A stretch of 669 bases of DNA from Escherichia coli (GCF_003334255.1 NZ_QOWU01000199.1); one strand, 5' to 3'. Shown: positions 1 through 669, counted from the first letter of the stretch. The notes: generated by a model not told the origin, from the sequence alone. Numbers and translations: made by a program.

Positions 1-63
1 GACATCAGTACCCGTGATGAAGGCGGGGGCGGAAAGGTCGTGGTTATCGGGCGGCAGGGGTAA
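1..63 (+). CDS. I: Tail assembly protein, lambda gpI-like; 3' end only (5'-partial, upstream of window)
   Basis: Frame +1 reads DISTRDEGGGGKVVVIGRQG then TAA at 61..63. The Gly-rich stretch followed by VVVIGR matches my recollection of the lambda gpI C-terminus, and the position immediately upstream of a J homolog fits lambda gene order (K-I-J). Only 20 codons are visible, so the call leans on synteny plus a short motif. Confidence 0.7.
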   Translation, partial: DISTRDEGGGGKVVVIGRQG

Positions 64-109
64 AAAGAATAAAAAAATCCCGCAGTGATCGCGGACAGGA
101 ACTGCGGGA
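64..109 (-). terminator. Rho-independent terminator-like hairpin oriented for the minus strand
   Basis: Perfect inverted repeat CCCGCAGT (79..86) / ACTGCGGG (101..108), extendable by a T:A pair at 78/109, with a 14-nt loop (87..100). On the minus strand the stem is followed directly by ATTTTTTTATTCTTTTT (complement of 78..64). On the plus strand no U-tract follows the stem, so it is not a plus-strand terminator. Confidence 0.5.
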
Positions 110-168: not shown

Positions 169-174
169 AGCGAA

Positions 175-202
175 ATTATCAGCGCCACAGTCAGTTTGTG
201 AA
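175..202 (-). promoter_or_regulatory. Candidate sigma70 promoter on the minus strand (-35 TTCACA, 16-nt spacer, -10 GATAAT)
   Basis: Minus-strand sequence reads TTCACA (202..197), then a 16-nt spacer, then GATAAT (180..175); each hexamer matches consensus at 5 of 6 positions. AT-rich context. The predicted start near 167..169 would give a transcript ending at the terminator at 64..109. Motif match only, no expression data. Confidence 0.2.
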
Positions 203-292
203 AATGTGAAGATATTCAGAATTTTTATTCAGTCATGATACAGGCATCCTCCGGGGTGCCTGTTGTTTTTGTGAGTGAACAATTATCACGGT

Positions 293-299
293 AAGAGGT
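293..299 (+). promoter_or_regulatory. Shine-Dalgarno / ribosome binding site for the J-like CDS
   Basis: AAGAGGT at 293..299 lies 6 nt upstream of the ATG at 306..308. The in-between ATG at 301..303 is followed directly by TAA and is not the start. Confidence 0.6.
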
Positions 300-305
300 G
301 ATGTA

Positions 306-669
306 ATGGGCAAAGGCGGCGGCAGGGCGCACACACCGCGCGAGGCGAAGGATAATCTCAAATCCACGCAGATGATGAGTGTGATTGATGCGATTGGTGA
401 GGGACCGATAGAAGGTCCGGTGAAGGGACTGCAGAGTATTCTGGTGAACAAAACCCCGCTGACGGACACGGACGGTAATCCCGTGATACACGGTGTGACC
501 GCCGTCTGGCGTGCCGGGGAGCAGGAGCAGACACCACCGGAAGGCTTTGAGTCCTCCGGAGCTGAAACTGTACTGGGTGTGGAAGTGACGAAGGCAAAAC
601 CGGTGACACGCACCATTACGTCAGCGAACATTGACCGCCTGCGGGTGACCTTCGGGGTGCAGTCACTGG
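306..669 (+). CDS. J: Tail tip / host specificity protein, lambda gpJ-like; N-terminal 121 codons (3'-partial, continues beyond window)
   Basis: ATG at 306 with SD upstream; open frame +3 to the window end. Translation MGKGGGRAHTPREAKDNLKSTQMMSVIDAIGEGPIEGPVKGLQSILVNKTPLTDTDGNPVIHGVTAVWRAGEQEQTPPEGFESSGAETVLGVEVTKAKPVTRTITSANIDRLRVTFGVQSL is colinear with the lambda J N-terminus as I recall it (MGKGSSKGHTPREAKDNLKSTQLLSVIDAISEGPIEGPVDGL…RAGEQEQTPPEGFESSG…TRTITSANIDRLRFTFGVQ), with long identical blocks. Codon usage is GC-rich and enterobacterial in character. Confidence 0.9.
   Translation, partial: MGKGGGRAHTPREAKDNLKSTQMMSVIDAIGEGPIEGPVKGLQSILVNKTPLTDTDGNPVIHGVTAVWRAGEQEQTPPEGFESSGAETVLGVEVTKAKPVTRTITSANIDRLRVTFGVQSL

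Follow-up and report, generated by a model that had tools for sequence, protein, structure and literature searches.

Positions 306 to 669 of the analysed window, a stretch of 669 bases of Escherichia coli DNA that spans the junction of two tail genes in a lambdoid phage or prophage, very probably are the 5' end (codons 1-121) of a lambda-type J (TipJ) gene, which diverged long ago and evenly from lambda J and belongs to a lineage distinct from that of lambda. J, which in lambda-like siphophages is a trimer and provides both the hub of the tail tip and the central fibre, is among the best-studied phage proteins. The fragment itself is real, ordinary and already known, and its allele class is already annotated as gpJ/TipJ. 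The 242-bp spacer upstream of it appears to carry, on the opposite strand, a small RNA (sRNA) gene of the published PasB type that has so far gone unannotated.

The initial annotation had recognised a gpJ-like N-terminal domain at 306-669, and this was borne out independently by searches with BLASTP, PDB, NCBIfam, PHROG and Pfam. Translation of positions 306-668 on the plus strand returned the protein sequence as quoted there, MGKGGGRAHTPREAKDNLKSTQMMSVIDAIGEGPIEGPVKGLQSILVNKTPLTDTDGNPVIHGVTAVWRAGEQEQTPPEGFESSGAETVLGVEVTKAKPVTRTITSANIDRLRVTFGVQSL, with 121 residues and free of stops. In a BLASTP comparison with lambda J (NC_001416 15505-18903, NP_040600), 92 of the 121 residues were identical (76%) and 104 scored as positives (86%), with 0 gaps and E = 9e-62, and the alignment was colinear, residues 1-121 lying on residues 1-121. 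The same colinear match was obtained with the top PDB sequences, all of them the lambda 'Tip attachment protein J' (9e7m and 8iyk/8iyl/8k35/8xcg/8xci, E around 1e-55). The sole NCBIfam match was NF049904 (lambda_TipJ), with 242.8 bits over profile positions 1-121 of 1163; its curated cut-off of 1950 bits is a whole-protein score that a fragment of 121 residues is too short to reach, and the full-length J of the nearest relative, Escherichia phage PhiR5_1, scored 2312.5 bits. The fragment further matched PHROG 31 'central tail fiber J' (E = 6e-65) and PHROG 1727 'tail protein and host specificity'. Residues 86-121 aligned with positions 3-38 of 126 in the Pfam model PF24801 (FNIII-A_GpJ, E = 8.6e-8), a placement consistent with the limits of this domain in lambda, residues 72-215 (PMC10721106). 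A search of 5.8 billion proteins gave 323 matches at E <= 1e-5, the best of them 97-98% identical. All matches with a named source were labelled J, TipJ or phage tail protein, or carried an uninformative label (hypothetical, DUF1983), and nearly all of them came from Escherichia, Shigella and Salmonella. The best matches are therefore tail proteins, and the identity to lambda J lies well above chance level. Identity, reading frame and homology of the fragment were thus observed directly.

The surroundings of the fragment agree with this assignment. The window opens with the 3' end of the tail assembly gene I (positions 1-63, plus strand, frame-1 translation), whose last 20 codons, DISTRDEGGGGKVVVIGRQG, are followed by the stop codon TAA at 61-63; the counterpart at the C-terminus of lambda gpI is ...EISTADEGDGGQVVVIGR, and in relatives the stretch 1-63 is annotated as 'tail (tip) assembly protein I'. 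The start codon ATG of J occupies 306-308. A Shine-Dalgarno sequence, AAGAGG, was read directly from the sequence at 293-298 on the plus strand, 7 nt 5' of the ATG, and is kept in relatives. The J reading frame is absent from the listing of open reading frames because it continues past the end of the window. Synteny in the window itself consists of the 3' end of gene I upstream of J; the order V-G-T-H-M-L-K-I-J, followed by lom or tail-fibre genes, is seen in the relatives only. At 301-306 an ATG-TAA 'start-stop' minicistron shares its last base with the start codon of J (ATGTAATG). PhiR5_1, NCTC9112 and E2348/69 have kept this minicistron, which lambda lacks (GAGGAATG) and which may be incidental.

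A hub protein of this type need not come from a phage. The N-terminal region is shared with the F2-pyocin tail fibre and other J-like proteins, which followed lambda J among the PDB matches together with the J-like proteins of other phages (E 6e-12 to 2e-8), and a split hub organisation also occurs in RcGTA (PMC10721106). The fragment might then belong to the J-like hub of a non-phage tail-like particle, an F-type tailocin or a gene-transfer agent. Lambda J (76% identity) and Escherichia prophage J (98%), however, are both far closer to the fragment than these proteins are, and the DNA relatives of the window are all lambdoid phages or prophages with a complete tail module and lom, which makes such an origin barely conceivable.

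Somewhat more weight has to be given to the reading in which J has decayed or been truncated in a defective prophage, so that the fragment looks like an intact start but the gene no longer makes a functional tail tip. Many J proteins in the databases are short or partial (90-210 aa), some of them on complete chromosomes; E. coli often carries cryptic lambdoid prophages, and a single genome can have as many as 11 copies of this junction; and the window ends at codon 121. Against decay speak the start codon, the Shine-Dalgarno sequence and 121 open codons, as well as dN/dS values of 0.06-0.09 relative to close relatives, from which the fragment differs by 10-16 silent and 2-3 replacement changes. 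In addition, the J proteins of the closest relatives are full-length (1157-1176 aa), one of them in the isolated phage PhiR5_1. We thus regard a decayed J as unlikely and the 5' end of a lambda-type J gene as the preferred reading.

The initial annotation had described the fragment as conserved blocks interspersed with divergent patches relative to lambda J, and the alignment reproduced every one of them. Four blocks are identical to lambda J: HTPREAKDNLKSTQ (aa 9-22, nt 330-371), EGPIEGPV (aa 32-39, nt 399-422), RAGEQEQTPPEGFESSG (aa 69-85, nt 510-560) and TRTITSANIDRL (aa 101-112, nt 606-641). In the three patches the window reads GGRA, TDTDGNPVIHG and VTKAKPV, and lambda reads SSKG, LDTEGNTNISG and VKYDTPI, respectively. 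This pattern had been called a mosaic. Taken literally, the blocks would be recent lambda-derived segments and the patches the foreign J background into which they were recombined within the first 121 codons. The patchy identity to lambda J invites such a reading, lambdoid phages are famously mosaic, and the J genes of relatives show sharp jumps in identity further downstream.

The silent sites do not bear this out. Over the J fragment, DNA identity to lambda is 74%, and at third codon positions it is 50%. Among 91 degenerate codons that encode the same amino acid in both genes, 44 carried a silent change, 24 of 51 inside the blocks and 20 of 40 outside. The estimates after Nei-Gojobori were dS = 1.16, dN = 0.16 and omega = 0.14 for the whole fragment, with dS values of 1.32 inside the identical blocks and 1.07 elsewhere; the blocks are hence as silently diverged as the rest. 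The longest exact nucleotide match to lambda J was 14 nt. A maximum chi-square scan against lambda found no breakpoint, either at third positions (p = 0.86) or over all sites (p = 0.70). Nor were the 29 amino-acid differences clustered: they formed 41 runs versus 45.1 expected (runs test with random shuffling, p = 0.19), and the longest stretch without a difference, 17 residues, did not stand out either (p = 0.18). Homology to lambda J is far beyond chance, but the block-and-patch layout is not. The third-position differences formed slightly too few runs (51 versus 61.6 expected, p = 0.03), which would suit a mosaic; we take this as a weak hint of local rate variation, one that no breakpoint backs up. 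A recombinational mosaic within the first 121 codons is on these grounds very improbable, and the earlier suggestion of segments with different histories is not upheld.

Judged from the silent sites, whose divergence was observed to be uniform, the pattern instead points to a single old divergence (dS around 1.2), even along 363 bases and filtered by purifying selection. The lambda-like blocks look identical because amino-acid change is not tolerated there, the silent sites being nearly saturated. An entropy comparison over all homologues (p = 9e-13) was partly circular, as most of these belong to the clade of the window or to that of lambda, and it was replaced by a test on the independent Salmonella-type clade. 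The sites that differ from lambda were more often variable in that clade (18 of 29, compared with 35 of 92; odds ratio 2.7, p = 0.03), which fits a site-specific constraint.

The same initial annotation had proposed a distinct lambdoid lineage and not lambda itself, and here the comparisons agree with it: DNA identity to lambda is as low as stated above, and members of the window's own lineage reach 95-98%. The homologues over the 121 residues fell into three groups. Members of the first share 88-98% identity with the window and 69-77% with lambda; in the second, the lambda group, the corresponding values are 72-76% and 95-98%; the third consists of more distant Salmonella-type sequences. At the DNA level the whole window matched 147 phage records. 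PhiR5_1 was the best of them (97.3%), followed by phage JLK-2012 (around 93%) and then by many Stx1a-, Stx2a- and Stx2c-converting phages at around 92% or less. The junction was present in 1890 of 5426 complete E. coli genomes, about a third, with identities of up to 96.7%. An identical match was found neither among phages (at most 97.3%) nor among complete E. coli genomes (at most 96.7%) or plasmids (at most 96.6%, partial). Exact-pattern scans returned nothing better: two loci at 89-90% in IMG/VR, none in the GTDB species genomes, and 14 loci in metagenomes, where identity was at most 91.6% overall, or 97% if the J part alone is counted.

The three closest relatives of the window J are those of prophage PP6 of E2348/69 (WP_000514675.1), of PhiR5_1 (XSB41336.1) and of a prophage of NCTC9112 (WP_126502615.1). 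Within the fragment each shares 98% amino-acid identity with the window (2-3 differences) and 95-97% DNA identity, none being identical, and all three have the enlarged I-J gap with an antisense sRNA, as in the window. The J lineage of the window is a common one and is also found in long-tailed Stx1a/Stx2c-converting phages, in PP6 of the enteropathogenic (EPEC) strain E2348/69 and in PhiR5_1. The J protein of lambda (8IYK, 8IYL, 8K35, 8XCG, 8XCI, 9E7M) resembles that of the window in being colinear from Met1, encoded by the gene after I and assigned to the same domains; it differs in 29 amino acids, in a DNA identity of only 74% and in near-saturated silent sites. On metagenome contigs, from human gut and other sources, the best match varied with the part of the window: two contigs (L022 and L014) were 96-97% identical over the J part, and their I and spacer part was 88% identical or unmatched. 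These contig-dependent best matches reflect reassortment on a fine scale, in which closely related prophages differ around the I-J spacer.

The window covers 121 of about 1150 J codons; in a lambda-type J, the hub domains HDII, HDIII and HDIV, FNIII-1/2, a helical shaft, the central fibre and the C-terminal receptor-binding domain would follow beyond its end. The receptor-binding domain of J lies far downstream of the hub part (PMC10721106; PMC11101478). In the three closest relatives, whose J proteins were compared at full length, identity to lambda J is 71-85% over residues 1-500 and 14-44% after residue 1000. Among themselves these proteins reach 95-100% identity throughout most of the first 700 residues, apart from a single bin of 100 residues at 91-92%. 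In PP6 of E2348/69, residues 701-800 are 92% identical to lambda, whereas the neighbouring bins reach 58% and 39%. After residue 1000, PhiR5_1 and E2348/69 are 100% identical and NCTC9112 is only 22-24% identical to either, so that the C-terminal receptor-binding regions differ among proteins with nearly the same N-terminus. The jumps in identity after approximately residue 700 are true recombination junctions, by which the hub is decoupled from the receptor-binding domain. As these junctions lie after approximately residue 700, host range cannot be read from the window, in agreement with the initial annotation: near-identical N-termini are combined with last stretches of around 150 residues that are either 100% or only 22-24% identical.

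The structural role of the N-terminal part of J has been described for lambda. Cryo-EM showed that J assembles as a trimer together with gpL and gpI to build the tail tip (PMC10721106; PMC11101478), and the earlier view of the N-terminus as a structural tail-tip component agrees with this hub role. The N-terminus of lambda gpJ is an HDII-insertion domain that is interrupted by the Ig-like FNIII-A (residues 72-215), which separates beta4 (residues 65-71) from beta13, and the C-terminal iron-sulfur domain of gpL provides the missing N-terminal part of the HDII-insertion fold (PMC10721106). Upon binding of LamB, the HDII-insertion domains (HDII-ins1 and HDII-ins2) rotate or shift together with HDII-HDIII; their movement leads to the release of the gpI plug and the opening of the tube (PMC11101478). 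Because the alignment to lambda J is ungapped, residues 1-71 and 72-121 of the window correspond to the HDII-insertion strands and the start of FNIII-A. In lambda numbering, codons 1-71 (306-518, plus strand) encode the N-terminal strands of the HDII-insertion hub domain, as assigned by the ungapped 1:1 alignment to the gpJ chains 8iyk_J and 9e7m, and codons 72-121 plus one base (519-669, plus strand) encode the first third of the Ig-like FNIII-A ('HDII-ins2'), matched by PF24801 and cut by the end of the window; the limits of both domains are those of PMC10721106.

From this correspondence we infer, by transfer from the lambda structures through the alignment, the contacts of the window J with gpL and gpI and its movement on opening. 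Residues 1-71 would form the N-terminal strands of an HDII-insertion domain that is completed by the C-terminal iron-sulfur domain of gpL, and residues 72-121 would begin the inserted Ig-like FNIII-A domain. The HDII-insertion domain and FNIII-A would both bind the gpI plug through beta-sheet augmentation and would move as rigid bodies once a receptor is bound at the far C-terminal end and the tube opens. A dN/dS of 0.14 is the constraint expected of such a multi-partner assembly interface. The patches at aa 5-8, 52-62 and 92-100 might be the places where gpI and gpL are contacted, with surfaces specific to each lineage. [quoted passage not shown] Unlike in lambda, all hub domains and the plug of T5 reside in one polypeptide. 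The likeness is structural and known from the literature only; at the sequence level, no match of pb3 to the fragment was seen.

Between the two tail genes lies an intergenic region of 242 bp (64-305), which contains an antisense sRNA cassette. The corresponding spacer in lambda comprises 60 bp (I ends at 15444 and J starts at 15505), and in the alignment around 180 bp of the gap are without a lambda counterpart. Sequence comparison identifies the antisense element as a putative sRNA of the PasB type, a member of a published family that is unannotated here. PasB of the EPEC strain E2348/69 is an Hfq-dependent sRNA, and it is for this allele that expression and Hfq dependence have been shown, by northern blotting and RIL-seq (PMC8550237); the literature on PasB comprises Pearl Mizrahi et al. 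(2021; PMC8550237) and a preprint by Zhu, Shabalina and Storz (2026). The gene was mapped to NC_011601 1466343..1466261 on the minus strand, in prophage PP6 (Table S6, PMC8550237), where it sits between I and J in antisense orientation. By alignment, its 83-nt equivalent in the window occupies 71-153 on the minus strand, and the primary transcript may start near 168. The PasB northern probe AATCCCGCAGTGATCGCGGAGCT (Table S6, PMC8550237) matches window positions 76-95.

The candidate gene has the signals expected at both ends. A terminator scan and folding predicted a Rho-independent terminator at 71-108 on the minus strand, with arms at 101-108 and 79-86 followed by an A and a run of seven U (78-71 on the RNA). 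This terminator was invariant across seven loci, as was the sequence ACTGCGGGATTTTTTT, and its stem-loop and U-tract have the layout of an intrinsic terminator and Hfq module; an ATCTTC motif 5' of the terminator was likewise conserved in the seven loci. A sigma-70-type promoter-like site (TTCACA, a 16-nt spacer and GATAAT; 175-202, minus strand) was found by a promoter scan as a consensus match of 10 out of 12. Its TTCACA is invariant and the ATAA core of its -10 element nearly so in the seven loci, and relatives read TATAAT. The window and E2348/69 PasB therefore share the I-J slot, the antisense strand, the terminator, the U-tract and the promoter-like site, but their RNA bodies are only 72% identical (64 of 89 aligned columns, 4 gaps), with flanks at 91-95%. 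The published PasB variants are described as only a few nucleotides apart, and the allele of the window may or may not be among them. Of the 5426 complete E. coli genomes, about 1235 contain this allele at an identity of at least 95%, and none of them has it annotated.

Rfam 15 holds no model for PasB. The Rfam matches at E <= 1 were treated as chance, namely MicX (E = 0.026; 21 bits, where the gathering score is 75) and, within J, two models of archaeal snoRNAs at around 15 bits. A CA-rich antisense stretch in the I-J gap was considered as the anti-sRNA AgvB and rejected, as AgvB is located at the PR' moron site (Tree et al. 2014); the supplements of the same study contained nothing usable on an EcOnc sRNA near sodC or tail genes. 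An open reading frame of 21 aa at 144-209 on the plus strand, MSRQKKLTQRNYQRHSQFVKM, is preceded at a distance of 9 nt by an AAGGA motif. E2348/69 lacks the ATG of this frame, which also overlaps the 5' end of the sRNA and the promoter-like site; the frame was rejected and is probably not a gene.

A second structure in the gap lies on the plus strand. A G+C-rich hairpin (240-263; terminator scan with 10 pairs, 6 of them G-C) is followed by TTGTTTTTGT, so that the element at 240-273 is terminator-like. It is located within the late operon and directly precedes the ribosome-binding site of J. In the seven loci the stem was kept, with a variable loop and one change from G-U to G-C, and lambda has an analogous hairpin before J, AAACCGCCTGCGGGCGGTTT followed by TGTCATTT.

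In a prophage of the O157:H7 strain PNUSAE146743 (L007, 737-1587), a sodC cassette for a Cu,Zn superoxide dismutase replaces, on the antisense strand, what lies between the sRNA and the start of J (window positions 174-305). This sodC lies on the same strand as the sRNA, with a PasB-like element around 100 nt downstream of its stop codon, and in O157:H7 the sodC transcript may end in the PasB-like sRNA, which would then have both roles. Since a sodC cassette takes the place of part of the gap in O157:H7, we tentatively suggest that the I-J gap might behave as an exchangeable antisense cargo ('moron') slot, occupied by the sRNA alone in the window and by sodC with the sRNA in O157:H7, and that the sRNA body diverges much faster than the neighbouring tail genes; we hold this to be possible, not probable.

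These results bear on how lambdoid tail genes and their spacers are read. A patchy protein identity to lambda J should not be taken as mosaicism without a check of the silent sites. Residues 1-700 of J serve as one conserved lineage marker, and the host-range information resides in the recombining C-terminal third. If gpI and gpL are indeed contacted through the three patches, these would sort lambdoid tails into groups compatible in assembly and would keep recombination junctions out of the hub. The enlarged I-J spacer appears to harbour a PasB-type sRNA gene that has been overlooked by annotation pipelines and by Rfam. Should the spacer indeed act as a cargo slot, different prophage lineages would carry different sRNA regulatory seeds.
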